Shown: positions 48,834 to 64,000, numbered from the stretch's first letter. The stretch: 64,000 nt of DNA from Thermoproteota archaeon (GCA_029258835.1 JAPDJY010000039.1:99615-163614), one strand, 5' to 3'. The notes: generated by a model from the sequence alone, not told the origin. A program made the numbers and translations.

Positions 48834-50249
48834 GTGAAAGAGAACGTGATCCAAGTAAGGGTTCGAGGGATATATTCGACTGCACTCTGTAAGCTTTTTC
48901 TAGATCATGGATTCACAATAACTCAAGCATCATCGGTTCTAGCTGAAAGATTAAACATTGAAAAGACCATGTACCCTCCAAACGTTGAAGTCTATGATAC
49001 TAAGAACAGGCAAGGGGTCGTGGTAGTTGGAGAAAGGGAGCCGCTAGAAAAAACACTTAATGCCATTAGAGAAGAAGTAGAGGATGTGGTGACAAGGAGG
49101 CCAAGCGTTAACCTTAATGCAATATACATGGGTCGCATAATAAGGAAGTTTAACGGAAAAGCGATTGCAGATATTGGACACATGAGGATCATTGTAACTC
49201 CACCATTTGCAGATGAAGGAAAAGTACAACTCTTAAGAATATCTGAAGTGGATCCTAAACCTATTGCATCCGGGAAGATATCCATCGCTGGAAAGTACGT
49301 AGTTCTAACCACCAACAACCAAATTGGTGTAAGCAATAAGATTAAAAGCAAGGATGTAAGGAAGATCCTGTACCACTTTGGAGAAAAAATGAAGCCGGTA
49401 AACATGGGCATTATTTTCAGAACCGCAGCAGGAAGCGTCGACCTCGCCCTGGTCTCCGAAGAAATAGAAAAAATAAGTAAAGAAATGGAGGAAGTTATTA
49501 ATATCTCAGCAAGTTTGGAGGAGCCAACCTTAGTTAGGGAAGGAGAGGCTGTTGTCGTCACCGAGTTCCCTGCAAGCGCCAAGAGAGCCCTCGATGACGT
49601 AAGAAAGAGCGTGGTTCCAACCGTTAAAGGACACCACTTTTACAAGGCTTCAGGGGATAACATAGCCTGTCTTGTTGACTTTGCAGAAGAGATTTTATCG
49701 AGGCATCCGGAGCTACACGGTGAAATCAGTAGCACTCTAGAAAGGAAGGTGCTAGAAAAGAACATTAGAAACGGAAACGAAGTTAAAATTGAGCATGTTA
49801 AACCTAATGGTAAAATAATTTACCTTTACGGGAGGGTTGCTCAAGCAAAACTTCCCCAAGGCGAGATAGTTATTAGGAGAACGTTTAGAGGTAAAGGTTA
49901 CTATGATGGGTTAAACGTACCGAAGGATCCAGGAGACCATGGAGTTACAATAATAATGCCAGAAGAATGGTTCTTCAAAACAGAATACTATTCTAAGGAT
50001 GGAACGTTTAAGGGAGCATTCTATAATATTAACACGCCCATAGAAGTCTACCCTCACAAAATACGTTACATAGACTTGGAGATAGATGTGGTGGAGTGGC
50101 CTGACGGAACGGTGAGAGTTATAGATCAAAGCACCTTAGAGGAGGCATATATTAAGGGATACATACCCAGAAAACTTAAGGAAAAAGCAGAAAAAGTGGC
50201 AGAAAGGATAATGAATGAAATAGTAAATCGGAGACGTATGGAAAAATAA
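48834..50249 (+). CDS. FAU-1 AU-rich RNA-binding ribonuclease (RNase E/G-like + DUF402)
   Basis: RVRGIYSTAL, PTVKGHH, YDGL, YNINTPIE, YIDLEIDVV. Confidence 0.9.
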   Translation: MKENVIQVRVRGIYSTALCKLFLDHGFTITQASSVLAERLNIEKTMYPPNVEVYDTKNRQGVVVVGEREPLEKTLNAIREEVEDVVTRRPSVNLNAIYMGRIIRKFNGKAIADIGHMRIIVTPPFADEGKVQLLRISEVDPKPIASGKISIAGKYVVLTTNNQIGVSNKIKSKDVRKILYHFGEKMKPVNMGIIFRTAAGSVDLALVSEEIEKISKEMEEVINISASLEEPTLVREGEAVVVTEFPASAKRALDDVRKSVVPTVKGHHFYKASGDNIACLVDFAEEILSRHPELHGEISSTLERKVLEKNIRNGNEVKIEHVKPNGKIIYLYGRVAQAKLPQGEIVIRRTFRGKGYYDGLNVPKDPGDHGVTIIMPEEWFFKTEYYSKDGTFKGAFYNINTPIEVYPHKIRYIDLEIDVVEWPDGTVRVIDQSTLEEAYIKGYIPRKLKEKAEKVAERIMNEIVNRRRMEK

Positions 50250-50289
50250 AAAAATTTTTGAAGGGGTTGCTTCATGATAATTTTAGAGT

Positions 50290-50428
50290 GCGGGGGTGCC
50301 CGAGTCTGGTCAAAGCTATTCGAGAAGCGGCTTAAGGGGGCAGGCTCAGGACCTGCTGGCGTAGGCGCTTAGGCGGCGTATGCCTGCGTGGGTTCACTTC
50401 GGGCCCATAAATCCCATCCCCCGCACCA
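50290..50428 (+). tRNA. tRNA-Leu(CAG) with three introns (50314-50334, 50365-50381, 50396-50408); CCA encoded; mature 88 nt
   Basis: Exons rebuild GCGGGGGTGCCCGAGTCTGGTCAAAGGGGGCAGGCTCAGGACCTGCTGGCGTAGGCCTGCGTGGGTTCAAATCCCATCCCCCGCACCA; each insert forms a BHB. Confidence 0.93.
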
Positions 50429-50566
50429 AATTGATATGAAATTCTAAAAAATTCTAAAAAAGAAGGCGTGTATTGTCTAAAACATTCCTCTAATTTTTCT
50501 TATTTTTAAGAAATTTAGAAATTTTTTTAAGAGTCGTACAGGAGATACTTTAGAGAGGGGTTCCTG

Positions 50567-51457
50567 ATGAGGTTAGAGTACTTCAGGACGCTAATTGAGG
50601 TGGCGAGGCGAGGAGGATTTTTAAAGGCTGCTAGAGGACTTGGTGTAACGCAGGCTACTGTAAGTAATCACATAGCGGCTCTGGAGAAATTTTTCGGAGT
50701 TGAACTTTTCGATAGGACGAAGCGAACTGTTAGTCTAACTAAGGAAGGAGAGATCCTGCTGGAAAAAGCCAAAGAAATTCTGAGGATTGTGAATGAAGCC
50801 AAGGAGGAACTAAAAAAAGTAAGTGAGGAAGAAGAGGGGACCATAAGGGTAGCGGCAAGCACTATTCCAGGAGAACACGTCTTACCGGGATTAATAGCGC
50901 AGTTTAAGAGGGAACACCCAAAGGTAAGTTTTGAAGTAAAAATTATGGATACAGGCACTGCATTAGAAGCCTTACTCCAAGGTGAAGCAGACTTGGCTGC
51001 AGTGGGAAGTTTAATGGGAAGAAGTACTAGAGAATTAGACGCTCTTCCCATTGGAAAGGAAAAATTGATTTTCATCTGTCCTGTTGAACATGAGTTAACT
51101 AGAAAGGAGGTGGTGACCCTTGACGATTGCTTGGCGTTTCCGTTCGTTTTTAGAGGAGTTAACTCGGGAACGCGAGCAGAAGTGGAGAAAAAATTTAAAG
51201 AAATAGGGGCTCCAGTCGAGAAGGTTAACATTTCACTTGAAGTAGGTAGTACAGAGGCGGTTATGACGGCTGTGTCGGAGGGGTTAGGGATAAGCGTTGT
51301 TTCCGAGATTGCTGCAAGGAAGGCGGAGGCAGCAGGACTCATAAAAATCCTTAACGTCAAGGGATGGGATGCTGAACGTACGCTTTACCTTGTTAGAGAT
51401 AAAAGCAAAAGGCCAACGCGAGGAGTTAAACTATTCTGGAATTTCTTGTCAAAATAG
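50567..51457 (+). CDS. LysR family transcriptional regulator
   Basis: FLKAARGLGVTQATVSNHIAALE, LFDR, AASTIPGEH, SGTR, GSTEAV. Confidence 0.93.
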   Translation: MRLEYFRTLIEVARRGGFLKAARGLGVTQATVSNHIAALEKFFGVELFDRTKRTVSLTKEGEILLEKAKEILRIVNEAKEELKKVSEEEEGTIRVAASTIPGEHVLPGLIAQFKREHPKVSFEVKIMDTGTALEALLQGEADLAAVGSLMGRSTRELDALPIGKEKLIFICPVEHELTRKEVVTLDDCLAFPFVFRGVNSGTRAEVEKKFKEIGAPVEKVNISLEVGSTEAVMTAVSEGLGISVVSEIAARKAEAAGLIKILNVKGWDAERTLYLVRDKSKRPTRGVKLFWNFLSK

Positions 51458-51477
51458 CAGGGGGGAGTTGATAGAGG

Positions 51478-52446
51478 TTACGATAGGAGGAGCCTTATTA
51501 GCAGGCGGGGGATTTCTGAAAACTTTTTCACAACCACAAAGCGTCCTTTCCCAGCTTTTGCAATCTTCTTACATGCTTCTAATCCATACTTGGCAATTTT
51601 TCCCTTACTTGGAGTTGCTATCACATGTAAGAGGGGGAACTTGGCAGCTACCAGTGTTGGGTCGCCTCCCACGTTCCACTCCCCGTCGGTTATTAGAATG
51701 CCCCACCGTTTCCCGCTGCGCTTCACCTTAGAAAGCTCCTTTAACCCCTTAGATAATCCATCGCTCATATTCGAGTAACCAAGAGCTTTTATGTCTAAGA
51801 TCTCCTCCACCACTCTCCCAATATCCTTTCGTTCATTCATGGCTTTAAGTATGAATGCCCTCGTACTAAAACCTATCACAGCGTAATTTTCGCTTCGCAT
51901 GTGGTAGGCCAGAACAGCCGTTGAAAGTGCAGCGTTAAATAGCTTCTCCTCGGTCATGCTCCCACTAGAGTCGAAAATAAGCACTCCAGATTTCGCCTGC
52001 GAACGCCTTTCCAATCCTACAATGTCTTCATAGGAAACATACCCTTTCTCCAAAAGAAAGTCTATTGTTGCTTCCTCATCAAACTCCATTAAGCCAGGGT
52101 AGTAAGGCACTTTTTTACGGAGAGGCCCCTTAAGGCCACGGCCACTAATCCTTAGGGAGGATTTAAGAATAGCCATTTTCGCAAGCCTTTTAAAAATGCG
52201 TTTATATTTTGGATTAAGGTTTCCCCGTAATAGCAAGTATATTTCAACTGGACTCTGCACTTCACCGTAGGAGATGCGTCTAGCAACGAGGAGTGCGGCA
52301 TCGGGGCTAGAGAGAGCATCGGCCACGGCAACTTTGTTAACCCTTGACAGGCCCTTTATCGCAGTGAGGTTGCTGCATTTCAAAGCCAGCTCCGCAGCGT
52401 TTTTTATGGAAACGTAATCCATGTTCCTTGCTAAGTCAGTATACAC
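51478..52446 (-). CDS. vWA domain protein (frame open upstream to 52563; possibly expressed as a -1 frameshift fusion with the MoxR ATPase)
   Basis: MIDAS motif DSSGSM, GYSN, LITDG. Confidence 0.88.
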   Translation of the reverse strand: MYTDLARNMDYVSIKNAAELALKCSNLTAIKGLSRVNKVAVADALSSPDAALLVARRISYGEVQSPVEIYLLLRGNLNPKYKRIFKRLAKMAILKSSLRISGRGLKGPLRKKVPYYPGLMEFDEEATIDFLLEKGYVSYEDIVGLERRSQAKSGVLIFDSSGSMTEEKLFNAALSTAVLAYHMRSENYAVIGFSTRAFILKAMNERKDIGRVVEEILDIKALGYSNMSDGLSKGLKELSKVKRSGKRWGILITDGEWNVGGDPTLVAAKFPLLHVIATPSKGKIAKYGLEACKKIAKAGKGRFVVVKKFSEIPRLLIRLLLS

Positions 52447-52516
52447 GTAAAGGGGGGCTTCACCTAAGGAAATTTCTTCTAGGAGGAGGTCTAGACGTGA
52501 AGGAAGCGTTGCACGC

Positions 52517-52563
52517 GGAAGTTCATCGGAGGCGGCAGCCGCCCCCTCCCTTACATAAAACCC
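52517..52563 (-). promoter_or_regulatory. Candidate -1 programmed ribosomal frameshift signal
   Basis: G GGT TTT heptamer (52563-52557) in the MoxR frame, 6-nt spacer, then GC stem-loop GGGA-GGGGGCGG-CTG-CCGCCTCC-GATGAAC-TTCC; the -1 frame is the vWA frame. Confidence 0.7.
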
Positions 52564-53414
52564 TCAAAACATTCATCAACTATTTCCTTTATGACTTCCT
52601 CAACTGTTTTGTCAACTCCGTCCTCTAGCTCAACACGTGTTCCAAGGGACATTATGGCGACTTGAGTCCAGAGTTCACGTATGTTAGTCTTAGACCCATC
52701 ATAATGAGATATGAGACGCACCATGTCAATTGCTCCTCTAACCGATGCCCCCCTACGTAGGTCCTCGTGAATGCGCGTAGCCCTAACTATTTTCACAGCT
52801 AAGCTAATCTTCTCTGGATCAGAACATCCTGACTTAAGGGCTACGATCTTTCTCTCTTCCTCCTCGCTTTGATAATCGAGGCGTATCCAGCAAAACCTGT
52901 CTCTCAAAGCTTCTCCTAGAGCCGTTACTCCTACATGTTCAAGAGGATTTTGCGTGGCAATGATGAAGAAGCCGGGCTTAGCTACGATCTCGCCTATTTT
53001 AGGAATCCCCAGTCTACCTTCGTCCATAACCGGTAAAAGCACATTCTGAGTTGATTCGCTTAATCTATTTATCTCGTTTATGAATAAAATTCCCCCTTCA
53101 AGCATTGCAAGTGTGAGAGGGCCCGGAACAAAAGCATCCTTCGTATAGCCGTACTTTAGAACGGCAGGAGGATCAAACCACCCAGTTAGTTTTGCCTCTG
53201 TGTAGCGTTCGTCACCATCTACGCGGAAAATCGGCTGGTTAAAGTATTTTGCAATGGCATCCGCTAGGGTGGTCTTACCGACACCAACCTCCCCCTCTAT
53301 TAGCAGGTGGCGCTCCGCTAACTTCGCAGCTAAAGCTTTCTTTAACTCCTCTAACCTGCCGACGATGTTGAAACGAGACTGTATCTCGCGAGCCATTTCA
53401 TCTATGGACTTCAT
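52551..53414 (-). CDS. MoxR family AAA+ ATPase
   Basis: LLIEGEVGVGKT, FVPGPL, NEINR, ATQNP, EALRDRF, GASVRGAID. Confidence 0.92.
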   Translation of the reverse strand: MKSIDEMAREIQSRFNIVGRLEELKKALAAKLAERHLLIEGEVGVGKTTLADAIAKYFNQPIFRVDGDERYTEAKLTGWFDPPAVLKYGYTKDAFVPGPLTLAMLEGGILFINEINRLSESTQNVLLPVMDEGRLGIPKIGEIVAKPGFFIIATQNPLEHVGVTALGEALRDRFCWIRLDYQSEEEERKIVALKSGCSDPEKISLAVKIVRATRIHEDLRRGASVRGAIDMVRLISHYDGSKTNIRELWTQVAIMSLGTRVELEDGVDKTVEEVIKEIVDECFEGFM

Positions 53415-53482
53415 GGAAGACCCCCGTTTAACACATTTTGCAAGATGCTTTTCAACGTTTGCCTAACGCAATCAGAAGGAGG

Positions 53483-54457
53483 TTATGCTAAGTCGGCTAT
53501 ATCAACGCCGCACTCGCTTATCCTATCCAACATATCAACTACAGTACTCACTGGAAGCGAAATCTTTACAGGTTGCCCCACGAGGGTCTTATAGGCTTCT
53601 TCAACAGCCTGATCTCTCTTAGGCTTCATATTAATAGTCTTCGCAGCGAGCACGCTATCCTTTCTGACAAGTGCCTCGATAGCATTAGAGTGCATTTCAT
53701 GTGCTATACGATTTATACGGGTGATGCTATCTAAAACGCTTTCAGGTATGTCAACATCTAAAAGCAGTCTGGTTTGCTCTGCTATTTTAACGGCGTAATC
53801 AGCCATAGTCTCTATGCTCTTGACAGCAACCCGGTAGTCTAAGCATTCTATAGGGGTAACACCAATCTTCTCGGCTAAACGAGGATCCACTATTGCAGAA
53901 CGAAGCTGGCGTACAATTAAGAAGTATAACCTGTCAACGTCTTCATCCCGAACCACCACATTTTCAGCAAGGCTAAGATCCTTATCTTTGACCGCTGCCA
54001 CAGCGTCATCCTGCATCTTCGCCGCTATAAGATACGTCCGTTTTATTGTACGTCTCAGCGGAACAGCAGACGGTGAAAGAAGACATTGCAAGGTGATCTC
54101 TTTAGCGCTTTCCTCAACTATTTCAACACCTACAAGCTGCTGCAAGGACCGCTTAATAGCGTCCCTTTGATCGGGAGTAATACCCGTTTTCGACCTGATC
54201 CTTATTATATCATATCCGTAAAGGAAGTTGGCTGTTATTTCCCTCGTGAAGTTTTCACCTACATCTATGATAGCCGTTTTAAGCTCTTCCTTCTCAGAAT
54301 AGCGAGGGTCCACTATAAGAGAGCCGTCACCACGCTCTATAATGGCTACAAGGTCGCCCTGCTTCAAACCCAAACGCTTAATCCAGTTCTTAGGAAGACT
54401 AAGCAAGTACGTACTACCACCTGTTTTTTGAAGTTTTCGAATTTCTATTTTCGACAT
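53483..54457 (-). CDS. phoU: Archaeal phosphate uptake regulator (AbrB + PhoU domains)
   Basis: RKLQKTGGSTYLLSLPKNW, DEDVDRLYFLIVRQ. Confidence 0.9.
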   Translation of the reverse strand: MSKIEIRKLQKTGGSTYLLSLPKNWIKRLGLKQGDLVAIIERGDGSLIVDPRYSEKEELKTAIIDVGENFTREITANFLYGYDIIRIRSKTGITPDQRDAIKRSLQQLVGVEIVEESAKEITLQCLLSPSAVPLRRTIKRTYLIAAKMQDDAVAAVKDKDLSLAENVVVRDEDVDRLYFLIVRQLRSAIVDPRLAEKIGVTPIECLDYRVAVKSIETMADYAVKIAEQTRLLLDVDIPESVLDSITRINRIAHEMHSNAIEALVRKDSVLAAKTINMKPKRDQAVEEAYKTLVGQPVKISLPVSTVVDMLDRISECGVDIADLA

Positions 54458-54771
54458 AAAATAACCTCCTTTTTTTAGGATCATGAAAGCAACCTAAATA
54501 TCAGAAGGATAATGATTATAGACAATATATATTTTTTATGTATGACAAAAAACACGGTGTTTTCTCGGAACATATTGAAAAAAGAAAATTATTAAGAAGA
54601 AAACACCTAATTTCTTAACCTTTACTTGGAAATCGCCAAATCAATAAATTAGTAGGAAGTAAAAAGTAGCCAAGAGATACTTGTCAGTGAACTAGTTACG
54701 AAGAAGGAAATGCCTCTATAACACGTAAAAACTTAAAGATGAGGAAGAGTATAGGAACTTGAGGCGGGAAC

Positions 54772-56295
54772 TTGACAGAAGTAGCCTACACCGCGAAGAA
54801 GACAATTAAAGACATTTTAGCAGCAGGGGTGCAGCTCACTCCAGAAGCACTGAAAATAATTCTTTCGTTAAAAAACCCCGCCGTGGTATTAGAAATAGTG
54901 GAGGAGGCAAAAAAAGCTAGTGAGGCAGTTGTCCTAACAAGGAGAGACGTGGAGGAAATAATCAGGAATAAAAAAAGTAGTGTTGAAGGCTTTAATGTGC
55001 AAGTAGGCAGGAAGGAGAGGGGGGGCGTTGCATCCCCGGTGATCCAAAGCGTCCTTGAGTCAGAACCAAACATTACTGCTAAAGACGTAGAGGAGGACTT
55101 TCAAGTCATCTTAGATCCCACATCTAGGATAGGGTCGAACGGAACCTTAGACGATTTCATAAAGTATTTTAGAGATAGGTATATGCGCCTTTCAAACATT
55201 TTCTTAAGAAGGGGAGACATAAAAAGGTTCTACAAAATATCAGAAATAGACGGAATTAAAGAGGGGCAAATAATAGGGATGGTAAGGGAAATTTCAAAGA
55301 CGCGCAGCGGAGCAGTAATCTTAGAGTTAGAAGATTTAGAAGCATCCATCAAAGTGATGATTCCAGAAGATATTGCCGGTAAAGCCAGAAACCTGATGCT
55401 GGACCAAGTGGTCTGCATAGAGGGAAAAAGTAATGGAAACCTATTCATAGCGAATAACATTCTCTGGCCTGACGTGCCCTTTAACCATAAACCAAGGAGG
55501 GCAGAAGACCCTGTGCTGGCAGTTTTCATATCGGACACACACGTTGGAAGCAGAGAATTTCTGGAAAAACCATTCAGAAAGTTCCTAGAGTGGCTGCAAG
55601 GAGACAGAGGCGATGAAAAAACAAGAGAACTAGCCAAACGAGTTAAATACCTAATTATAGCAGGAGACATTGTCGACGGAGTCGGAGTATATCCTGGACA
55701 GGAGGAAGACCTCATCATCGACGAACTCTACACTCAGTACGAAGCCACAGCCAGGTATCTTGAAGATGTACCAGACTACATAAAAATAATAGCAATACCA
55801 GGAGGGCATGATGCAACAAGGCAAGCACTCCCCCAGCCGGCAATACCCAAAGAGTATGGTGAACCCCTATACGAGATAGGAGTAGAAATACTCGGAAACC
55901 CGGCGCACTTCAGGATCCATGGAGTAGAAGTCTTGGCTTTTCACGGAGATTCCTTAAACGACGTCCTAATAGCACTCTCAATAGAGCAGAGCCAACCCCA
56001 GAAAGCAATGGTAGAACTTCTCAGAGGAAGGCACCTAGCTCCAATCTACGGATCAACGCCAATAGCACCCGAACCAGTAGACTTCTTAGTAATAGAAAAA
56101 ATCCCCGACATACTTCACTGCGGGCACCTCCATGTTAACGGACAGGAAAACTACAGGGGAATAACGGTAATAAACTCAGGGACGTTCCAAGCACAAACGA
56201 GCTACCAGAAATCCATGGGGTTAACGCCGACGCCGGGTAAGCCATACATTGTAAACTTGCAAAACTTAAAAGTAACCCAGTTAGAGTTCGCCTAG
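54772..56295 (+). CDS. polB: DNA polymerase D small subunit DP1
   Basis: YFRDRY, ISDTHVGS, AGDIVDGVGVYPGQ, GGHD, FHG, HLAP, HCGHLH, NSGTFQ. Confidence 0.95.
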   Translation: MTEVAYTAKKTIKDILAAGVQLTPEALKIILSLKNPAVVLEIVEEAKKASEAVVLTRRDVEEIIRNKKSSVEGFNVQVGRKERGGVASPVIQSVLESEPNITAKDVEEDFQVILDPTSRIGSNGTLDDFIKYFRDRYMRLSNIFLRRGDIKRFYKISEIDGIKEGQIIGMVREISKTRSGAVILELEDLEASIKVMIPEDIAGKARNLMLDQVVCIEGKSNGNLFIANNILWPDVPFNHKPRRAEDPVLAVFISDTHVGSREFLEKPFRKFLEWLQGDRGDEKTRELAKRVKYLIIAGDIVDGVGVYPGQEEDLIIDELYTQYEATARYLEDVPDYIKIIAIPGGHDATRQALPQPAIPKEYGEPLYEIGVEILGNPAHFRIHGVEVLAFHGDSLNDVLIALSIEQSQPQKAMVELLRGRHLAPIYGSTPIAPEPVDFLVIEKIPDILHCGHLHVNGQENYRGITVINSGTFQAQTSYQKSMGLTPTPGKPYIVNLQNLKVTQLEFA

Positions 56296-57530
56296 AAGCG
56301 TAACCCATCATCTAGGGCAAGTTTCCTTATCATAGGATCCTCGTCCAGAACATCTCTAATTTGGCTTACAGGAACGTTAATCTTCACCTCCTTCGACAGG
56401 CCGTGCCGTCCCCTGCTCTTAAGATGGGCTGAAACCACACCAAGCATGTCAAGCTCGTTTATAAGCCCACTAATCCTCCTCTGGGTTAACGGCTCAACAT
56501 GAAGATACCTGCAAACATCCAAATAGTAATTGTAAATGTCCCCCGTCCTAGCGCGCCCTTTCCCCTGCTTAGTTAAGGCAAAAATGGTGTAAAGAACCAG
56601 CTTAGAATGCATGGGCAGCGTCCTCAAAGCCTCCGTCACATGGTCACGCTCAATCACTCGCTGGGCAGCTCTAACATGATCCTCCGTAACCTTCTCCGCT
56701 CCTTCACGCTCAGCAAGCTCCCCTGCAACCCTCAACAAGTCTAACGCCCGACGGGCGTCGCCATGCTCCTTAGCAGCTATAGCAGCGCAAAGATTTATAA
56801 CGCCATCCTCCAAGACTCTATCCCTGAAAGCCAGGCGGGCACGTTGCCAAAGAATGTCCTTAAGCTCAGATGCAGTATATGGAGGGAAAACCAGCTCTTC
56901 TTCTCCTAGGCTACTCAGCACCCTAGGATCAAGACTATCCTTAAACGTCAAGTCGTTAGTAATACCTATTATGCTAACACGTGCTTGCTTAAGCACGGTA
57001 TGATTCATCCTAGTAAGGTCGTAGAGCACGTTGCTGCCATCCCTCTCAACCAACCGCTCAACCTCGTCGAGAACTATAAACATTAACACGTCCCTGCTGT
57101 CAAGAGCACCCTTAAACCTGCTGTAAACTTCATCGGTGGGCAACCCAGTAAACGGAACCTCAACCCCCAGATACGAGCAAAGCCTAGCCAAAACACGGTA
57201 ATTAGTATTAACGATCCTACAGTTAAGGTAAGCAGGCACGGGCTCCGGCACCCCAAGTTCACGGCACTTCATAACTAAATGCTTAAGAACATACCTCACG
57301 ACGGCAGTTTTACCCGTACCCGTCTTCCCATAAATAAAAACGTTCGAAGGCGTACCTCCCTTAAGCGCAGACGCCAAAATGAGACCTACCTTCTCGATTT
57401 GCTCATCCCTATGAGGTAACTTGTCAGGAACATACGTGTGGCTCAAGACATCACGATTCTTGAAAATCTTGGTCGAAAGGAACCTCTCAAAAACAGCCTC
57501 AAGGGAACGGTCACTCAACTCAACCACCAC
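56292..57530 (-). CDS. cdc6: Orc1/Cdc6 replication initiator
   Basis: YVPDKLPHR, YGKTGTGKT, LDEVE, LDPRVLSSLGEEELVFPPY, HGDARRALDLL, wHTH. Confidence 0.97.
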   Translation of the reverse strand: MVVELSDRSLEAVFERFLSTKIFKNRDVLSHTYVPDKLPHRDEQIEKVGLILASALKGGTPSNVFIYGKTGTGKTAVVRYVLKHLVMKCRELGVPEPVPAYLNCRIVNTNYRVLARLCSYLGVEVPFTGLPTDEVYSRFKGALDSRDVLMFIVLDEVERLVERDGSNVLYDLTRMNHTVLKQARVSIIGITNDLTFKDSLDPRVLSSLGEEELVFPPYTASELKDILWQRARLAFRDRVLEDGVINLCAAIAAKEHGDARRALDLLRVAGELAEREGAEKVTEDHVRAAQRVIERDHVTEALRTLPMHSKLVLYTIFALTKQGKGRARTGDIYNYYLDVCRYLHVEPLTQRRISGLINELDMLGVVSAHLKSRGRHGLSKEVKINVPVSQIRDVLDEDPMIRKLALDDGLRF

Positions 57531-57626
57531 CCTCCCTTAGCTCCAGTGGAAACAGAGGTACATAAGCGTTACGGACGGGCAAATATATCCATTAGTATTA
57601 CAGCGAGAACATGGACCAGAGCGCAG

Positions 57627-58079
57627 CTACGGGAGAAGTTGAAGAAGCTCGCTAAACCTAGAGGTCTTAAACCGGGAGCTATCCTTAACCCGGTAATAAT
57701 ACTGTTTCTTCGTCCCCCTACGCTCCAAGCAACCCTCACCACTATAAAGCCTCGCCAAATAAGTGGAGATAACACTCAGAGAAGTATCCCCAAAAACCCG
57801 GGTGAACTGCTCATAAACATCATTAGAAGTAAACCACCCATACTGGAAGTACTTCAGCAAAATGAGCTCAACCTTATCCTTCATCGACAGATTGTCAGGG
57901 TCAGGATACAATTCAAGCTCAGAACCACCCTCTAACACCTTACCCTCAGACAGCTTCTCAGAAAGCTCCTCAACCAAGGACGCCGCCAGCTGGGGGGAAA
58001 CGTCGCCTTCAAGAGTCAGAACAGCCTTCCTATTACGTTCAGTATCGACTATCTCGATCTTGTAGCGTTTCGCCCCCAA
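57627..58079 (-). CDS. Winged-helix DNA-binding protein upstream of cdc6
   Basis: WFTSNDVYEQF...LSVISTYLARLY...LERRG...YYYRV; start moved to TTG 58079. Confidence 0.75.
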   Translation of the reverse strand: MGAKRYKIEIVDTERNRKAVLTLEGDVSPQLAASLVEELSEKLSEGKVLEGGSELELYPDPDNLSMKDKVELILLKYFQYGWFTSNDVYEQFTRVFGDTSLSVISTYLARLYSGEGCLERRGTKKQYYYRVKDSSRFKTSRFSELLQLLP

Positions 58080-58288
58080 CTGGCACACCATCCACTGGAA
58101 ATCAAGGTGAGTTAGATCTTCTATTTGGCAGTATATATGTTTATCTATTACTCCGAGAACGTGAAGCAAGAAAGGCAGGCAGAGAAGCGAACCACCAGCA
58201 AACCTAAGACAAAATGCAACACCCGTCAGCAACAACTCAAGACCCAAAACAACTCAAAGGCCTCCCAAAACAACCCAAACACTCAGAA

Positions 58289-58714
58289 AGTTAACGCAGA
58301 CCCCTTAAAAGAGAAAAAAAGAGAAAAAGACTGCCAAATGGAAGCAAGAAAACTATACTGCAAATGTAACATGAAACTGTGAACTTGTTAACCTAATAAC
58401 GTGCCTATCCAGCAAAGAAATAAAAGGAAAATAAAAGGTCTTATTTATGAAAAGAGGAAAATAAAAACATGTTAACAATAAAATAGGTTAAAAAATGGAA
58501 GTTTGACGAAAAAGAATAATTTTCTCCATTGATATTAAGAATAGACGTTAACAGAACGTGTTAACAACGGAAAGCAAGGAAAAGATCATCCAGATTTTAC
58601 CTCCACTTGAAGCAAAGGGGTTACATTTTAACTAGGAAAATCACCTTATAAACGGCAAAGAACTAGTGTTTTTTTGGGGGAAGGCGTTCTTCACATGATG
58701 TTAACGTGTTAACA
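58289..58714. repeat. Cluster of seven (T)GTTAAC(A) palindromes inside the origin region
   Basis: Copies at 58289, 58386, 58470, 58546, 58559, 58699, 58707. Confidence 0.6.
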
Positions 58715-58772
58715 TGTCGAGATGATTTTGAAAACACAAGTATACTTTAAAGAGAAAGTGGAAAGGGAACGG

Positions 58773-59078
58773 ATGGTGAAAACATTGAGAATATACGTTT
58801 ACGACGTTAGGCCTGGAATGGCTAATGACCCTCGAAGGGTGAAGTTTTCTAAGGAGCTCTTCGGGTACAGCTATAAGTGGAGAAAAGGGAAGGACAAGAG
58901 AACCGTGATGAAGTATAAGTCAGGTCTTATAGATCTAGACGGGTGTGAAAGAGCAGGGGATAGCGCTATACTGGTTCCCGATGAGCATGTTAAAGAGTTT
59001 AATAGTTTATTTAGAAAGTATAATGACGTGATTAGGTGTCGAGTTTTCGTAGTTGAGAGGGAGGAAGTGATTTATTAG
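58773..59078 (+). CDS. Cas2/VapD-like small protein
   Basis: IYVYDV...RRVKFSKELFGY...RAGDSAILVP pattern resembles the Cas2/VapD ferredoxin-like fold. Confidence 0.55.
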   Translation: MVKTLRIYVYDVRPGMANDPRRVKFSKELFGYSYKWRKGKDKRTVMKYKSGLIDLDGCERAGDSAILVPDEHVKEFNSLFRKYNDVIRCRVFVVEREEVIY

Positions 59079-59426
59079 AACTTGTGTTCTAATTTCCAGT
59101 ATCAATGAAAGGCAAGCAACTCAAACACCCCTCTATTTCAACTGGAAGAAGTAAACTCCTTTAGGAGTATAAATAATAAACTTTTAGAATAAAACTCCTT
59201 CCCCAATAATAAATGGAGGAAGAATTATATAAATTTTTGCTGTAAAAGATTACACTACGTTTTTTCTTTTACAAACTCCCATATTTTTTCCAGTTGAAAT
59301 GAGGGGGTCTTCGTTAGAACTGTGAATTCGCTTCTTGATGTCCGATATCAATGTCAGATGTCGCTATTCTAACATGATTTCAGGTAAAGGTTTATAGGTC
59401 TCTCCCTAGATATTCTAATTTGACAG

Positions 59427-59789
59427 GTGGTTGGAGTGAGTGAAATTGATGAACTCGCAAAGGCCCTTGTAGAGGGCAATCATAAAAGGGCTCTTAGTGT
59501 AATTAGGGCTGTCTTGGAGGAGTCTAAGTTTAAGGATGAATGGGTTAAGCTCGCCTGGCGTGGATGGCTAGTGGGGCTTGAAAAGTTTAATTCTCTTTCT
59601 TTGATTGTTAGGTTATTGAATGGTGTTTCACCTGAGGATGTTAAGCGTTACATTAGTTACTTCGAATCTCTGTCTCGTACTGTTGCTGGAAACGTTCCTT
59701 CTAAAGTTGGCTTTGCTAAAGGCTACTTGAAGGTTTGGATCAACCTTTTGAACTCTTATGTTTCTTTTAAGCGTGATAAGTCGTCTTAG
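59427..59789 (+). CDS. Hypothetical alpha-helical protein
   Basis: 120-aa ORF with protein-like composition and a TTTATA box upstream. Confidence 0.7.
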   Translation: MVGVSEIDELAKALVEGNHKRALSVIRAVLEESKFKDEWVKLAWRGWLVGLEKFNSLSLIVRLLNGVSPEDVKRYISYFESLSRTVAGNVPSKVGFAKGYLKVWINLLNSYVSFKRDKSS

Positions 59790-60159
59790 AACATATGTTC
59801 TAAAGACTGTCTCTTACATGGAATATTGTTTTGGGAATGCGGAGGTATGCTGCCTGTATTTCTTATATTTATCCTTTTCTCCTTCGTGGGTTTTTCCTTT
59901 CCTCTCTTTCAGGGTATACTTTTTTGTAAACCTTCCTTTCTTGCTGCTTTCTTCCCTTGGGTTTCTTGATGTTTTTGCTGGATCCTCCTTCCTCTGCTTA
60001 TGGCCACGTGCTGCCTGGTTGGTGTTGTCCTCGTGTTACATGTATATTACAATGCTTTTTCTTTTGGCTTTCTGTTTCTGATTTTTGAGTTTGATTTCAG
60101 GTATCTGGTATCTGTGTTGGGTATCCGTGTTAGATATCGTTTGCTGATATCGTTAGGAG

Positions 60160-61224
60160 GTGGTTGGGGTGGAGAATGTTGGTGCGGTGGGTCGACTTTA
60201 CCCTTCTGTGGCCGAGGTGCGTAACTCATACTATGCTCTTTTTGGATGGCGTTGGAATCCGTTTTCTAGTGTTCGGCTGAGTGACCCTGAGCTTTTCGTG
60301 GCGCCTTACGATGTTGTGCTGGAGATCGATGACTACATTAAGGCTAGGGAGCGGCATATTTTGATAACTAGCAAGTCTCCTGGAATGGGTAAGACTACTC
60401 TTTTGGAGTTGATTTATGGTGACCTTCTGGAGCTTTCTAGGCGAGGTGACCCTGAGTACATGTTTTTCCCTGTTATGGTGAGTCAGAGTAAGCTTTACGT
60501 TAGGCAGATGGCTGAGGTTTTGGCTAGGAAGCTGAGGGTTCCTTACCCGCGTTCAGCCAATGCGGAGGACATTTACACCTTGATAAAGTATGACATTATG
60601 CTTCGTTACCTTTTGAGCAGGCATTTGACTTTGATTTTCATAGATGACTTTGGGGAGAATGATGTTGAGGTTTTCATTAAGGTTAAGGAAGTTGGGGATT
60701 TGACGTTGAAGGATGCTAAAAGGTTTGTTTTGGAGGAAGAGGACGAGTTTAAACGTTTCCTTAAGCTTAAAGGCTTGAAGCTTAGCGGCGAGGAACTGGC
60801 TAAGGTGAGGCGGATTGCTGAGGAGGGTGACGAAGACCAGATGATTTGCATGCTTATTTTGACCGGCACTAAGACTCATGTTATTGGCCTGAGGGAAGGG
60901 GTCCCTCACTTGTATGACCGGTGCTGGGAGGTGGAGCTTGAACCGCTGAGCGATGAGGGTGTTCGGGAGTTCATTGGTAGGCGGCTTTATTGGGCAAGTG
61001 GCAGGCTTAAGGAGTTCGACGAGTCTAATTTTGAAATTTACCCTTTCAAGGATGATGCTGTGCCTCTCCTGAGACGCAAGTCTAAGGGTGTTGGGCGAAG
61101 CCTCCGATTACTTTGTAATCAAGCGGTCTTCGTAGCTGCAAACCGTTTCAAGGATGGTGGAAGCCCGGAGATTGGGCGGGGTATTGTGGAGGTACTTCCG
61201 GATATTGAGGACGTTTCGGAGTAA
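60160..61224 (+). CDS. P-loop AAA ATPase (ExeA/AAA_22-like)
   Basis: Y..FGWRWNPFS, SPGMGKTT, LIFIDD, LILTGT, LEPLS..GVREFIGRRL, SKGVGRSLRLLC. Confidence 0.85.
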   Translation: MVGVENVGAVGRLYPSVAEVRNSYYALFGWRWNPFSSVRLSDPELFVAPYDVVLEIDDYIKARERHILITSKSPGMGKTTLLELIYGDLLELSRRGDPEYMFFPVMVSQSKLYVRQMAEVLARKLRVPYPRSANAEDIYTLIKYDIMLRYLLSRHLTLIFIDDFGENDVEVFIKVKEVGDLTLKDAKRFVLEEEDEFKRFLKLKGLKLSGEELAKVRRIAEEGDEDQMICMLILTGTKTHVIGLREGVPHLYDRCWEVELEPLSDEGVREFIGRRLYWASGRLKEFDESNFEIYPFKDDAVPLLRRKSKGVGRSLRLLCNQAVFVAANRFKDGGSPEIGRGIVEVLPDIEDVSE

Positions 61225-61275
61225 TTTGAAATCGACATCTGATATCGAAATCTTGTGTTAAATGCTGGTGAGAGG

Positions 61276-61737
61276 ATGACGCGGCTGGTTAACATAGCAA
61301 AGAAGGTTAGGGAGCAAGAGCGTTCTAAGAATGATTTCTCCTCTCCTACTTCCTCCCTCTCTTCCTCTGAAGGCTTCAGAGTTGCGGCTGCCCCCTCTCT
61401 AAGCCATGAGGCCTCCTCTCTTCCCTCAGATTCCTCTCAGGATGCGGGTTTTACTCCTATTCAAACTCCGGTTCGCATCGTGGAAAAGATTGTTTATGTT
61501 AGAAAGGATCCGAAGACGCGGCTGGATCAGAACTTTAATGTTCGAATGCCTGGCAGCTTTCTCCTGCTTTTGAAGAGGCGGTTTGGTGAGAGAGGTGCTA
61601 CTGTTTTCTGTAGGCTTGCAATTTTAGAGAAAATGAGGGGTGTTTTTGATGAATCCGAGTTGAAGGACATCGGTTTCTTTCAGCTTTTAGAGGAGCAGTA
61701 TGCGTTGTTCGAGAAGGCTAAGAGTAGGAGAGGTTGA
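61276..61737 (+). CDS. Ribbon-helix-helix protein with a long Ser-rich disordered N-terminal tail
   Basis: QNFNVRMP (strand), GSFLLLLKRRF (helix), G, ATVFCRLAILEKM (helix). Confidence 0.65.
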   Translation: MTRLVNIAKKVREQERSKNDFSSPTSSLSSSEGFRVAAAPSLSHEASSLPSDSSQDAGFTPIQTPVRIVEKIVYVRKDPKTRLDQNFNVRMPGSFLLLLKRRFGERGATVFCRLAILEKMRGVFDESELKDIGFFQLLEEQYALFEKAKSRRG

Positions 61738-62246
61738 TGTTGAGGTGTCCGGAAGTCGAGTTGGACGGCATTAAAAGTGCATTGCAAAGCGTTTTTAGTG
61801 ACCCTGTGGTGTCGCGGCTGCTTGCATCATCTAACCTGACCAAGATTCAGTTTGAAACGTTAATGATACATTTCTTGCTTGACGAGAATGTTGGTAGGCG
61901 GGTACGCTACTCTCTTAAGGGGCTTATGAGGTCTTCTAGGTTTCCTAGAGGTGGGCGGAAGCCGAAGTTTTCTCGGGGTGTCAGTAAGGGGGCTTTTAGG
62001 CGTGTGCTGGGTCAGGCTTGCAGGAACGTTATCAAGTCGATTTACACGCTTGTTCTTTTAGGCTACGTGGGTCTTCTCGATACGCCGAACCTGTTTCCAT
62101 ACCTTGAACTTTCGAACATAGTTTCCAGTTACCGTGAGCAGTTGGAGCGTGGAGACTTGCCTTTACACTTGAGGAAGTTGGAGGAAAGTTTGGTTAAAAT
62201 GATTGAGCAGTACGCGGAGCCTTTCAGACTGGTGAGCGCCATCTAG
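61734..62246 (+). CDS. Hypothetical HTH-like protein
   Basis: SNLTKIQFETL...GVSKGAFRRVLGQA...SIYTLVLLGYVG; overlaps the stop of the previous gene. Confidence 0.7.
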   Translation: MMLRCPEVELDGIKSALQSVFSDPVVSRLLASSNLTKIQFETLMIHFLLDENVGRRVRYSLKGLMRSSRFPRGGRKPKFSRGVSKGAFRRVLGQACRNVIKSIYTLVLLGYVGLLDTPNLFPYLELSNIVSSYREQLERGDLPLHLRKLEESLVKMIEQYAEPFRLVSAI

Positions 62247-64000
62247 CTTTCCATTGTTTTGCATGCTGCTACTATGGCTTGTCCTATGCTTACTCCTGCG
62301 TCTCCTGGTGGTATTTCTGAGTGTTGAAGGAAAACTAGGTTGTTTTCCTCGACGTAACGTTTAATTGTTTTCGTTATGGCTTCATTGTATGCTACGCCTC
62401 CCGTGAACCCTACGTACTTCACCCCTCTTTCTTGAGCTGCTTCTACGGCCATTTGCGCTAGTCCTAACGCTACTGCATGCTGGGCTGACGCAGCTAAGTC
62501 TTCAACCTTATGGCTTCCTTTAGCGTTCAGGACTTCTAATAGTATCTGTGTAGTATCTAAAACCTGTCTTCCATTCATTACGTATACTTCGGGTTTTATC
62601 TTGAGGGCTGGCTTCCCTCTTGTGGCTGCTGCCTCCAGCCTCATCGCTGGCTCTCCCTGATACGTTTTTTCCATGCATATCTTTAGGAGGGCTGCTACGG
62701 CGTCTAAAACCCGTCCAGTACTTGTCGTCAGGGGTGCTCTTCCACTCCTGAGCGTTTTTAAGATTAGTTCTACCTCTGTTTCCCCATACTTGAACCCTTC
62801 GATGTACTCTGACGTCAACATGTTTCTTAACTCATCTTCTGAGAGTGCTCGACTGAGAATTGCCGCCATCATCCTAGCCGGGTACTTGACTGCTAGGTCT
62901 CCTCCTGGCATGAGCTGTGGCGCTAAGTGTCCAAGTCTTTCAATTGAATTATAGTCTACCAGCAGAACTTCCCCCCCCCAAACTGTTCCATCGGTACCAT
63001 AGCCTACACCATCGCCTGCGATACATATTATCTGTTCATGCACTTTGTTTTCAGCCATTAGGGCTGCTGCATGGGCGTGGTGATGCTGAACTTTTATGAC
63101 GGGAACCCTCCATTTTTCACCGTATTCTTCCGCTATCCTCGTGGTTATGAACTGAGGGTGAAGGTCGCATGCTACGGCTTCCGGCTTCACATTAAATATT
63201 TTCAATAGATGATTGATGGTGTTTTCATGGAACTCTACTACGTCGAGGTCTCCTGAGATGTCCCCTATGTGTTGGCTGGCGAAGCACCTGTTCCCTTTCA
63301 TGACTGTTACTGTTACCGATAGCTCCGGACCTACCGCTAGAATTCCTTTCCCCTTGTATGGGATCTCCGTATCTATGGGTTCTGGGACATATCCTCTTGA
63401 CCTGCGTATTATCTTGGTTTTTCCGTCGACGAATCTTACTACGGAGTCGTCGCACCTTTGATATATTCCTCGGTTGTGGATTAAGAGGTAGTCTGCCAGC
63501 CGGGTTAAATGTGAGAAAATTTCTTTGTTGCTTGCAGCTATCGGCTTCCCTGAAACGTTTCCACTTGTCATGATGACTGCAGGGTCCGATATTTGGCGTA
63601 AAAGCAGAATGTGGATACCTGAGTATGGCAGCATTACGCCTATGTTGTGCAGCCCGGGGCTGATCCACTTTGAGAGGGGGAACTCGTCCCTTTTCTTGAG
63701 GAGAACTATGGGTCTCCTGAAAGATGTTAAAAGCTTCTCCTCCTCTTTGGTGACTTCTGCGTACTCCTTAACTTTCTCAATGTTAGGAGACATGACCGCG
63801 AAGGGCTTATACCTCCTATCTCTTTTCCTTTGTCGTAGCCTTAAGATGCAGTCGTCATCTGTGGTGAGGGCTGCTAGGTGGCTTCCGCCAATACCCTTTA
63901 TCGCCACTATGAATCCTTCATTTATCAGTTTGGCTGCTTCTGCTATTGGGTCCTTACACTCTATGATTTCCCCATTTACATTATGAATGCTCATCGTAGG
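62243..64000 (-). CDS. hypF: [NiFe]-hydrogenase maturation carbamoyltransferase HypF (5' part beyond window)
   Basis: IKGIGGSHL, KPFAVM, GVMLPY, MTSGN, CDDSV, CDLHP, QHHHAH, DGVGYG, PPGDAGVSIGQ. Confidence 0.96.
   Translation of the reverse strand, partial: PTMSIHNVNGEIIECKDPIAEAAKLINEGFIVAIKGIGGSHLAALTTDDDCILRLRQRKRDRRYKPFAVMSPNIEKVKEYAEVTKEEEKLLTSFRRPIVLLKKRDEFPLSKWISPGLHNIGVMLPYSGIHILLLRQISDPAVIMTSGNVSGKPIAASNKEIFSHLTRLADYLLIHNRGIYQRCDDSVVRFVDGKTKIIRRSRGYVPEPIDTEIPYKGKGILAVGPELSVTVTVMKGNRCFASQHIGDISGDLDVVEFHENTINHLLKIFNVKPEAVACDLHPQFITTRIAEEYGEKWRVPVIKVQHHHAHAAALMAENKVHEQIICIAGDGVGYGTDGTVWGGEVLLVDYNSIERLGHLAPQLMPGGDLAVKYPARMMAAILSRALSEDELRNMLTSEYIEGFKYGETEVELILKTLRSGRAPLTTSTGRVLDAVAALLKICMEKTYQGEPAMRLEAAATRGKPALKIKPEVYVMNGRQVLDTTQILLEVLNAKGSHKVEDLAASAQHAVALGLAQMAVEAAQERGVKYVGFTGGVAYNEAITKTIKRYVEENNLVFLQHSEIPPGDAGVSIGQAIVAACKTMES

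Follow-up and report, generated by a model that had tools for sequence, protein, structure and literature searches.

Type Ib and SegAB partition cassettes, among them ParF-ParG, delta-omega and SegA-SegB, consist of a gene for a nucleoside triphosphatase (NTPase) followed by a gene for a small adaptor with a flexible N-terminal tail, of which ParG and omega are examples, and they use short iterated sites that lie close to the origin and double as operators. For SegA and SegB the comparison made here draws on the abstract of one report (PMC8682754), and a review states that Asgard archaea have ParA/ParB homologues that may serve chromosome segregation (PMC7617429). Here we describe a two-gene cassette, encoding an AAA+ ATPase and a small ribbon-helix-helix (RHH)-like protein (the adaptor), in a 64,000-nucleotide stretch of DNA (the window) from a Thermoproteota archaeon (GCA_029258835.1, JAPDJY010000039.1:99615-163614). 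The window is the terminal stretch of contig C1 in a metagenome-assembled genome (G000) of 2.72 Mb and 91 contigs. By its genes the cassette resembles the partition cassettes in gene order, in the tail of its adaptor, in its short iterated sites that coincide with putative operators and in its position near an origin. It differs from them in that its NTPase is of the AAA+ class and not of the ParA/Walker type (SIMIBI), and in that its candidate sites are palindromic hexamers at 7- or 13-bp spacing. It may represent an undescribed chromosome-handling system. Supplements aside, literature searches that included the Freyarchaeia genome paper gave no description of an ATPase-RHH cassette, and that paper mentions neither Cdc6 nor an origin of replication nor partition.

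At 59124-59311 the window has the arrangement by which an archaeal oriC is recognised, namely inverted origin recognition boxes (ORBs) around an AT-rich stretch close to cdc6. The two arms (59124-59153 and 59282-59311) form a 30-nt inverted repeat, 80% complementary, that encloses a 128-nt AT-rich spacer. Within the window the ORB 19-mer is confined to this pair (2 matches against 0.09 expected), and the core TCCAGTKGAAA occurs 12 times where 3.0 matches are expected (0 of 100 shuffles), one of them at 57542, just upstream of cdc6. The longer motif TTCCAGTGGAAAyAAAGGGGT, which we take to be the classical archaeal ORB consensus, recurs as inverted pairs adjoining a small gene, orf118, in Jord-, Frey- and Odinarchaeia; such elements also adjoin orf118 in three Thorarchaeota loci and lie between orf206 and the ParA gene in Atabeyarchaeia. 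The initial annotation had described a module of four genes directly beside oriC, coding for a helical protein (hel120), the ATPase, the small RHH protein and a helix-turn-helix (HTH)-like protein (HTH170). All four open reading frames (ORFs) were recovered in this layout, and the inverted ORB pair, the AT-rich stretch and the nearby cdc6, conserved in relatives, bear out their position. The four do not form one module, since HTH170 belongs to an older, separate cluster and hel120 was detected in Jordarchaeales and in one further family (f20) only.

Orthologues of the ATPase were sought by profile search (E<1e-50) in a set of 301 Asgard genomes, whose families are denoted by f-numbers. They are present in 96 of the 301, as a rule in single copy, and G000 has one. 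Jordarchaeales (f1; 4/4, plus G000), Freyarchaeia (f2; 5/6), Odinarchaeota (f3; 4/4) and Thorarchaeota (f7; 69/76) have them, as do f20 (3/3), f26 (1/1), f27 (8/11) and one genome of f12; none was found in f5 (0/29) or f21 (0/21), and f9 gave weak partial matches only. In the ATPase tree the sequences group by lineage, with long branches between lineages, and identity between lineages is 23-32%. A small ORF directly follows the ATPase gene in every lineage examined. The ATPase gene lies within 10 kb of cdc6 in f1, f2, f3, f20, f26 and f12, and in Thorarchaeota orf206, orf118 and ORB elements are found about 10 kb from it; synteny across Asgard genomes, proposed initially as a check, thus places the cassette within 10 kb of cdc6 or ORBs in all lineages checked except f27. 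Viral contigs yielded no close ATPase relative, inspection by eye and queries of the conserved neighbours showed no transposase, TniQ or integrase, and the composition of the cassette region shows no anomaly in the window. On gene content and phylogeny, the cassette is a vertically inherited two-gene unit of Asgard archaea set in an origin-proximal cluster. The initial annotation had considered that the genes might be a sporadic mobile-element remnant, and the single copy, the lineage-grouped tree and the breadth of occurrence argue otherwise. The f12 genome encodes a divergent 439-aa ATPase (ATPase_2 7e-8, AAA_22 3.9e-6) together with a 126-aa basic protein (locus L036, 11108-12821), between HTH170 and HypF near cdc6; by sequence this pair is probably a remote version of the cassette. 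In each of three Thorarchaeota genomes (G077, G127, G244), about 35 kb separate the ATPase gene from a second Cdc6 paralogue, which is divergent (30-32% identity).

The ATPase is encoded on the + strand at 60160-61224 (354 aa; database records begin at residue 4, position 60169). Pfam AAA_22 matches 17 of 18 family members, the best at 3.7e-17, and the window's own sequence scores 14 bits, below the 27-bit cut-off. In a profile search of 1.84 billion representatives, 9 proteins pass E<=1e-30; at E<=1e-10 there are 962, which align from their own residue 2 onward to profile position 24. IMG uses the name ExeA for one near relative, close homologues bear Candidatus Freyarchaeota names, and the structure neighbours in the ESM Atlas are ExeA/GspA/MshM clusters (template modelling score 0.67-0.71), with one row named TniB. 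These matches agree with the description of the protein in the initial annotation as an ExeA-like AAA ATPase and not a ParA. The ParA/SegA candidate was rejected on the Walker A motif, which is SPGMGKTT and not KGGxGK[ST], on the AAA+ rather than SIMIBI fold, and on Pfam, where the window ATPase has no AAA_31 or CbiA match and only sub-threshold P-loop matches. The ExeA/GspA/MshM group (COG3267-type) is the nearest sequence family, sharing the AAA_22 core. The cassette ATPase differs from it in lacking the peptidoglycan-binding C-terminal domain (no Pfam PG_binding match; the 354-aa protein ends at the lid) and in having no envelope, secretion or pilus genes conserved near the cassette, and its orthologous subfamily is tiny (the 9 representatives at E<=1e-30) and restricted to Asgard archaea in these scans.

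An AlphaFold2 (AF2) model of the ATPase, structure prediction having been suggested in the initial annotation, is confident (predicted local distance difference test, pLDDT, 87.9; predicted template modelling score 0.82) and resembles Orc/Cdc6, TnsC and MuB. In an all-against-all structural search (VIA) the top match is Drosophila Cdc6 (7jgr_G; Z 19.2, root-mean-square deviation (rmsd) 2.9, 250 aligned), followed by Sulfolobus Orc1 (2qby_A, Z 17.9), Aeropyrum ORC2 (1w5s_A, Z 17.7), TnsC (17.2), Pyrobaculum Cdc6 (1fnn_B, Z 17.1) and MuB (Z 16.6), with unrelated AAA+ and STAND proteins at about 14; the best Foldseek match is Aeropyrum ORC2 (2.6e-9). The protein is like Orc1/Cdc6 in structure (Z 19.2-17.1 over 250-261 residues, with an Orc/Cdc6-type AAA+ base and lid in the model), in its sensor-2 motif of the GxxRxxRxL type and in being encoded beside oriC. 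It differs from Orc1/Cdc6 in its AAA_22/ExeA family, in its marginal sequence similarity and in the absence of the C-terminal winged-helix domain. The model ends with the lid helices, the alignments stop at residues 277-293 of chains of 366-390, and Pfam Cdc6_C gives no match to the ATPase, against 4e-29 in the neighbouring Cdc6. The alignment of the ATPase to the genome's own Cdc6 family by hhalign is marginal (probability 56.6%, E 1.1e-4, 107 columns), Pfam ORC-CDC6-like (PF24389) is found in 6 of 18 members (best 6.2e-4), and a PDB sequence search with the ATPase profile returned P-loop-level matches only (best E 0.0045). To the transposition ATPases of the TnsC/TniB/MuB group the protein is similar in fold (Z values of 17.2, 16.6 and 15.9) and in the AAA_22 domain, and it differs from them in having no transposase or TniQ nearby, in its single copy and grouping by lineage, and in its housekeeping-like neighbourhood. 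Orc, Cdc6, TnsC and MuB all assemble on DNA, steered by partner proteins; TnsC, TniB and MuB lack a sequence-specific DNA-binding domain and depend on their partners for direction. The cassette ATPase likewise has no DNA-binding domain of its own. Its catalytic apparatus is intact, comprising Walker A and B, the sensor-1 Thr, the box-VII Arg and the sensor-2 Arg. G75, G77 and K78 (Walker A), T237 (sensor 1) and R313 and R316 (sensor 2) are invariant, and no lineage has lost the acidic Walker B pair or the D-R that precedes strand 5 (alignment read by eye). Jord- and Freyarchaeia ATPases have a helical insert of 45 residues after Walker B.

The adaptor gene (+ strand, 61255/61276-61737) most likely starts at the ATG at 61276 and codes for 153 aa. 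All lineages share an N-terminal motif of the type hydrophobic-x-x-K/R-hydrophobic-K/R/A-K, which reads MTRLVNIAKKVREQE in the window, MSLLGKYRKEE in Thorarchaeota and KPKNPFAERFKKIDGGKAS in Odinarchaeota. It is followed by a low-complexity linker rich in K, E, S and T and by a C-terminus with a strand-helix-helix pattern, in which N/G-x-S opens the second helix in most sequences. RHH families match weakly: among 13 adaptors, RHH_1 was found in 2 (best 0.0016), Arc in 2 (0.01) and RHH_3 in 1; elsewhere Arc was found in 2 of 10 and Mnt at E 0.72. The RHH models give no match to the window's own adaptor, and a PDB search with the RHH domain of one f27 adaptor returned 0 matches. The evidence for an RHH-like C-terminal domain is weak but consistent. 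Of the RHH protein with a basic tip and a disordered linker that was described initially, the tip and the linker are conserved in relatives, and the RHH fold rests on these sub-threshold matches. By sequence the protein has the architecture of a centromere-binding adaptor, being small, encoded right after an NTPase gene and equipped with a conserved flexible N-terminal tail.

Three groups of GATATC-type hexamers surround these genes. Cluster 1 (59337-59362) consists of GATGTC, GATATC and GATGTC at 59337, 59344 and 59357, begins 26 nt from the right ORB arm and lies upstream of hel120. Array 2 (60093-60151), of the type GRTATC, has six G[AG]T[AT]TC hexamers at 60093, 60100, 60107, 60120, 60133 and 60146 (spacing 7, 7, 13, 13 and 13) and ends at the ribosome-binding site of the ATPase gene. 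Cluster 3 (61228-61252) lies between the stop of the ATPase gene and the start of the adaptor gene, with GAAATC, GACATC, GATATC and GAAATC at 61228, 61234, 61241 and 61247. GATRTC is not enriched overall in the window (40 sites against 42.2 expected) and is clustered (Monte Carlo P = 3.8e-4): the genome has 1239 sites and 13 clusters, of which 3 are in this 2 kb, and cluster 1 is its only three-site cluster. The clusters recur ahead of the hel120, ATPase and adaptor genes in two related genomes (G001, G002) and ahead of the adaptor gene in two Freyarchaeia genomes (G006, G009), so that the tandem repeats reported initially upstream of three genes are found again and are conserved in relatives. 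In the two Freyarchaeia genomes hardly an intergenic spacer near the origin is without pairs or triples at a 13-bp period. These arrays flank the ORBs on both sides, and some stand where the 3' ends of DP1 and cdc6 converge, a non-promoter position. Three GATATC sites at 15- and 13-bp spacing are found inside the ATPase coding region in G001 (L021, 9926-9954) and in G002 (L022, 10037-10065); the window's gene has none.

The genome-wide distribution of the motif, another check proposed in the initial annotation, shows that the dyads are almost confined to the origin region in Jord- and Freyarchaeia. The dyad GAYRTC-N7-GAYRTC occurs at 9 places in the complete 3.58-Mb genome G006, 8 of them within 11.5 kb at oriC (reversed-pattern control, 2), and in G009 all 9 are on the origin contig (control, 1). 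Two of three lie in the origin region in G001, as in G000. In Atabey-, Odin- and Thorarchaeal genomes the dyads are absent or dispersed. GTDB genomes contain 229 HTH170 loci, and among the best 80 of these 229 (20 Asgard-titled, 60 non-Asgard-titled) dyads are present in 8 of 8 Jord/Frey loci against 6 of the 72 others. Because the dyads follow the lineage-specific adaptor and not the near-invariant HTH170, the sites are assigned to the RHH protein, and we infer that the adaptor is their probable binder.

HTH170 (61734-62246, + strand) was initially called a coupled HTH-like protein. Its start overlaps the adaptor stop here, and the coupling is not conserved, the genes being convergent in Freyarchaeia. 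The AF2 model is all-helical with a moderate pLDDT of 72.7, and the family has an invariant motif, GVSRGAFxRxLxQAxxN. Foldseek gave nothing below E 1, and a wide structural search was dominated by the C-terminal helical hairpin; the LuxR-type domain 7vim_A aligns to model residues 32-114 (Z 5.7, rmsd 1.8, 61/64 aligned) at rank 50 only. Pfam matches are faint, with HTH_10 in 3 of 12 (0.24) and DUF134 in 1 of 12 (7e-4). An HTH-like fold is plausible from the model. Across the phylum HTH170 occurs in the families that have the ATPase and in f12, f13 (Atabeyarchaeia) and f6. In the 15 genomes where both were compared on one contig, its distance to the ATPase gene is 0.1-4.0 kb, and in five fragmented genomes the two are on different contigs. 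The best 80 loci are mostly from Bathyarchaeia. In the 60 non-Asgard-titled loci cdc6 is present in 49, at 1.9-5.8 kb (median 2.4 kb), and cdc6 or orf206 in 55, contig ends intervening in the other five; profiles of the ATPase, the adaptor, ParA and ParB matched nothing in these 60 loci. Since the block HTH170-orf206-cdc6-DP1 is common to Bathyarchaeia-type loci without the cassette, it is an old origin cluster into which the cassette was set. Odinarchaeota HTH170 genes have one in-frame TAG in 3 of 4 genomes (G011, G022, G032) and none in the fourth. In one Bathyarchaeota chromosome (L085, 10873-14164) a coiled-coil protein with an end like a winged HTH lies between HTH170 and orf206, together with what is, by eye, a HerA-like ATPase with a NurA-like partner.

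The slot between the ORBs and HTH170, which holds the cassette in Jord- and Freyarchaeia, is occupied in all three Atabeyarchaeia loci by ParA (AAA_31 1.4e-53) and ParB (ParB_N 1.8e-19, HTH_ParB 1.1e-10). This ParA-ParB pair, like the cassette, stands between the ORBs and HTH170/MBF1-like; it is canonical (AAA_31; ParB_N with HTH_ParB) and has no homology to the cassette. Among the 20 Asgard-titled HTH170 loci, ATPase and adaptor are present in 16, ParA and ParB in 3, and 1 is cut. ParB_N is conserved in f5 (27/29) and f13 (3/3), sporadic in f7 (8/76), f27 (1/11) and f20 (2/3), and was not found in f1 (0/4), f2 (0/6), f3 (0/4), f12 (0/19) and f26 (0/1). No ParB was found in G000, where the best ParA-like match (25% identity) looks, by eye, like an Mrp/NBP35-type protein.

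We propose that dimers of the RHH protein would occupy the GATATC-type hexamers with their 7- or 13-bp spacing. From the sites that precede hel120 and the two cassette genes they would exert autoregulation, and in Freyarchaeia, where sites fill nearly every spacer for about 12 kb around oriC, the bound protein would mark the origin region. The N-terminal peptide of the adaptor would recruit or regulate the ATPase, which would then assemble on that DNA in an ATP-dependent way. The likeliest output would be positioning or segregation of the origin region, by the logic of ParABS and SegAB with another class of motor, rather than initiation. In its generic form, an adaptor plus an ATPase acting on origin-proximal arrays, this scheme is one that we lean towards from the genes and sites described above. 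The fuller proposal, that the array-bound adaptor draws the ATPase to DNA near the origin in a partition-like manner with a different motor, is tentative, and we hold it at somewhat short of even. That the output of adaptor and ATPase is partition is doubtful. The broadest statement, that several Asgard lineages segregate or position their origin by an Orc/TnsC-like AAA+ motor which an RHH adaptor recruits to GATATC arrays, and that the ParAB of Atabeyarchaeia replaced this system or was replaced by it, is speculative and improbable.

A number of observations weigh against a partition system of this kind. The GATATC arrays are limited to the Jord/Frey order, a de novo search for periodic hexamers in the Odin, Thor and f20 loci found no origin-specific array, and most GATATC clusters are in intergenic, promoter-like positions. 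The complementarity of cassette and ParAB is partial. Both an orthologue and a conserved ParB are missing from f9 (68 genomes) and f21 (21 genomes), 8 Thorarchaeota genomes contain ParB-like genes in addition to the cassette, and the ParB of f5 is not near cdc6. In the f6 locus, where HTH170 is close to cdc6, cassette and ParAB are both missing, and few independent lineages underlie the pattern. Linkage to the origin is looser in some lineages, the main cdc6 of Thorarchaeota being 75 kb to 1 Mb from the cassette and the examined flanks of f27 showing neither cdc6 nor ORBs. At the sequence level the ATPase belongs to an ExeA-like family, whose characterised bacterial members act in secretin or pilus assembly and not on DNA, and we know of no AAA+ ATPase that drives partition. 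A further caution comes from haloarchaea, where OapA, named for its association with the origin, proved to be a vesicle GTPase (PMC10927574).

The alternative that best withstands the evidence is a purely transcriptional role, which the promoter-like positions of the clusters fit as well. The RHH protein would be an autorepressor and a local regulator of origin-cluster genes, the ExeA-like ATPase would be unrelated to DNA (an assembly factor or chaperone, like ExeA or MshM), and the linkage to the origin would be a matter of history. The clusters do occupy the interval from TATA-like boxes to start codons, immediately ahead of genes, and RHH autorepressors are common. ExeA/GspA/MshM are the nearest families in sequence and in structure, HTH170, orf206, cdc6 and DP1 form an ancient block in which linkage could persist, and OapA is a precedent. 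We nevertheless regard this account as rather unlikely, since arrays are found also between convergent 3' ends, dyads are scarcely found elsewhere in three genomes, the conserved N-terminal peptide and long linker of the adaptor would be superfluous in a plain repressor, ATPase and adaptor stay adjacent in spite of 23-32% ATPase identity, and no envelope, secretion or pilus genes are conserved nearby.

The ATPase might instead control replication initiation: brought by the RHH adaptor to origin-flanking sites, it would modulate Orc1/Cdc6 binding, melting or MCM loading as a co-initiator, loader or brake. The best structural matches, both by Z (19.2-17.1) and by Foldseek, are Cdc6 and Orc1, and the hhalign result against the own Cdc6 (E 1.1e-4 over 107 columns), the ORC-CDC6-like matches in 6 of 18 members, the 26 nt between cluster 1 and the right ORB arm and the Freyarchaeia arrays on both sides of the ORBs all point in this direction. 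TnsC and MuB, however, come within about 2 Z units of Orc/Cdc6, the sequence family is AAA_22/ExeA, the hhalign probability is only 56.6%, and the winged-helix domain is missing. The cassette is missing from many Asgard families that have the same Cdc6, and in Atabeyarchaeia the slot is filled by ParAB and not by an initiator. We therefore consider initiation control unlikely, and rank it below a purely transcriptional role. The view that a mobile element or a defence module, made up of a TniB/TnsC-like ATPase and a regulator, left a remnant beside the origin, for which the TnsC/MuB-like fold, the AAA_22 domain of the TniB family and the Atlas row named TniB could be cited, is close to refuted by the single copy, the lineage-congruent tree, the occurrence in 96 of 301 genomes, the normal composition and the lack of transposase, TniQ and integrase neighbours and of viral-contig relatives.

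Among known organisms, Asgard archaea are most closely related to eukaryotes. The searched genomes of Jord-, Frey- and Odinarchaeia gave no ParB_N match, and they have a conserved AAA+/RHH cassette at the side of the origin, and the near confinement of the motif to the origin in Freyarchaeia offers testable reagents in the form of two small proteins and an array with a 13-bp period. If the cassette does segregate chromosomes, a further class of partition NTPase would stand beside the ParA, actin-like and tubulin-like classes; if it acts on DNA, Orc/TnsC-type ATPases would gain a new chromosomal role. If it does not act on DNA, it would be another warning that adjacency to an origin is a poor predictor of function.

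The cassette is embedded in further genes. DP1 (54772-56295, + strand), Cdc6 (56292-57530, - strand), orf206 (57627-58247, - strand) and orf118 (58722-59078, + strand) precede the oriC core, and HypF (62243-63994, - strand) follows HTH170. For six window proteins NCBIfam and PHROGs gave nothing useful, and Rfam found no family in the window at 50000-64000. orf206 is conserved as the gene immediately upstream of cdc6, both across Asgard lineages and in 47 of 60 Bathyarchaeia-type loci, and has no Pfam family; its C-terminus is winged-helix-like by eye, and its true start is probably near residue 50. orf118, which has no family match, is always beside the ORB pair, in Jord-, Frey-, Odin-, Thor-, f20 and f26 loci. 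The spacer between orf206 and orf118 (58380-58720) contains repeated AACRTGTTAACA elements with a GTTAAC core, in at least 3 copies, direct and inverted, which differ from both the ORB and the GATATC motifs.

Several sequence elements lie outside the hexamer arrays. In Thor, Jord and f20 loci the ATPase start is preceded, at a distance of 50-110 nt, by a GTATTAC/GTAATAC box; in the window it lies at about 60046, and GTATTAC as such is not enriched there (8 against 5.7 expected). In Thor loci GTATTA/TAATAC palindromes are spread over the whole 20 kb, up to 12 per locus. In Freyarchaeum G006 an ORF-poor stretch of about 2.2 kb with three GATATC clusters separates the ORB pair from the ATPase gene (L023, 7300-9400), and neither an Rfam family nor a tRNA was found in it. 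The pyrimidine-rich spacer between hel120 and the ATPase gene (59790-60092, + strand) has conserved islands, among them the box near 60046 and the palindrome after the hel120 stop. A further island, the 19-mer GGTATACTTTTTTGTAAAC at 59913-59931, is invariant in 5 of 5 Jordarchaeales loci with variable flanks, and a metatranscriptome contig (59807-60049, weak) spans it. This is one of four short contigs at depth 2-4 from two runs of one sample (the others being 59500-59695, 60351-60609 and 61611-61826), which, as metatranscriptome libraries can contain DNA, are a weak hint that the cassette region is transcribed. hel120 itself (59427-59789, + strand, 120 aa) has no family. Right after its stop, at 59789-59800, is the palindrome GAACATATGTTC, present as TTGGAACACATGTTCCAAAA in 5 of 5 Jordarchaeales loci, and a similar AGAAC..GTTCT palindrome follows orf118 (59078-59092) here and in Freyarchaeum; these palindromes may be terminators or the sites of another protein.

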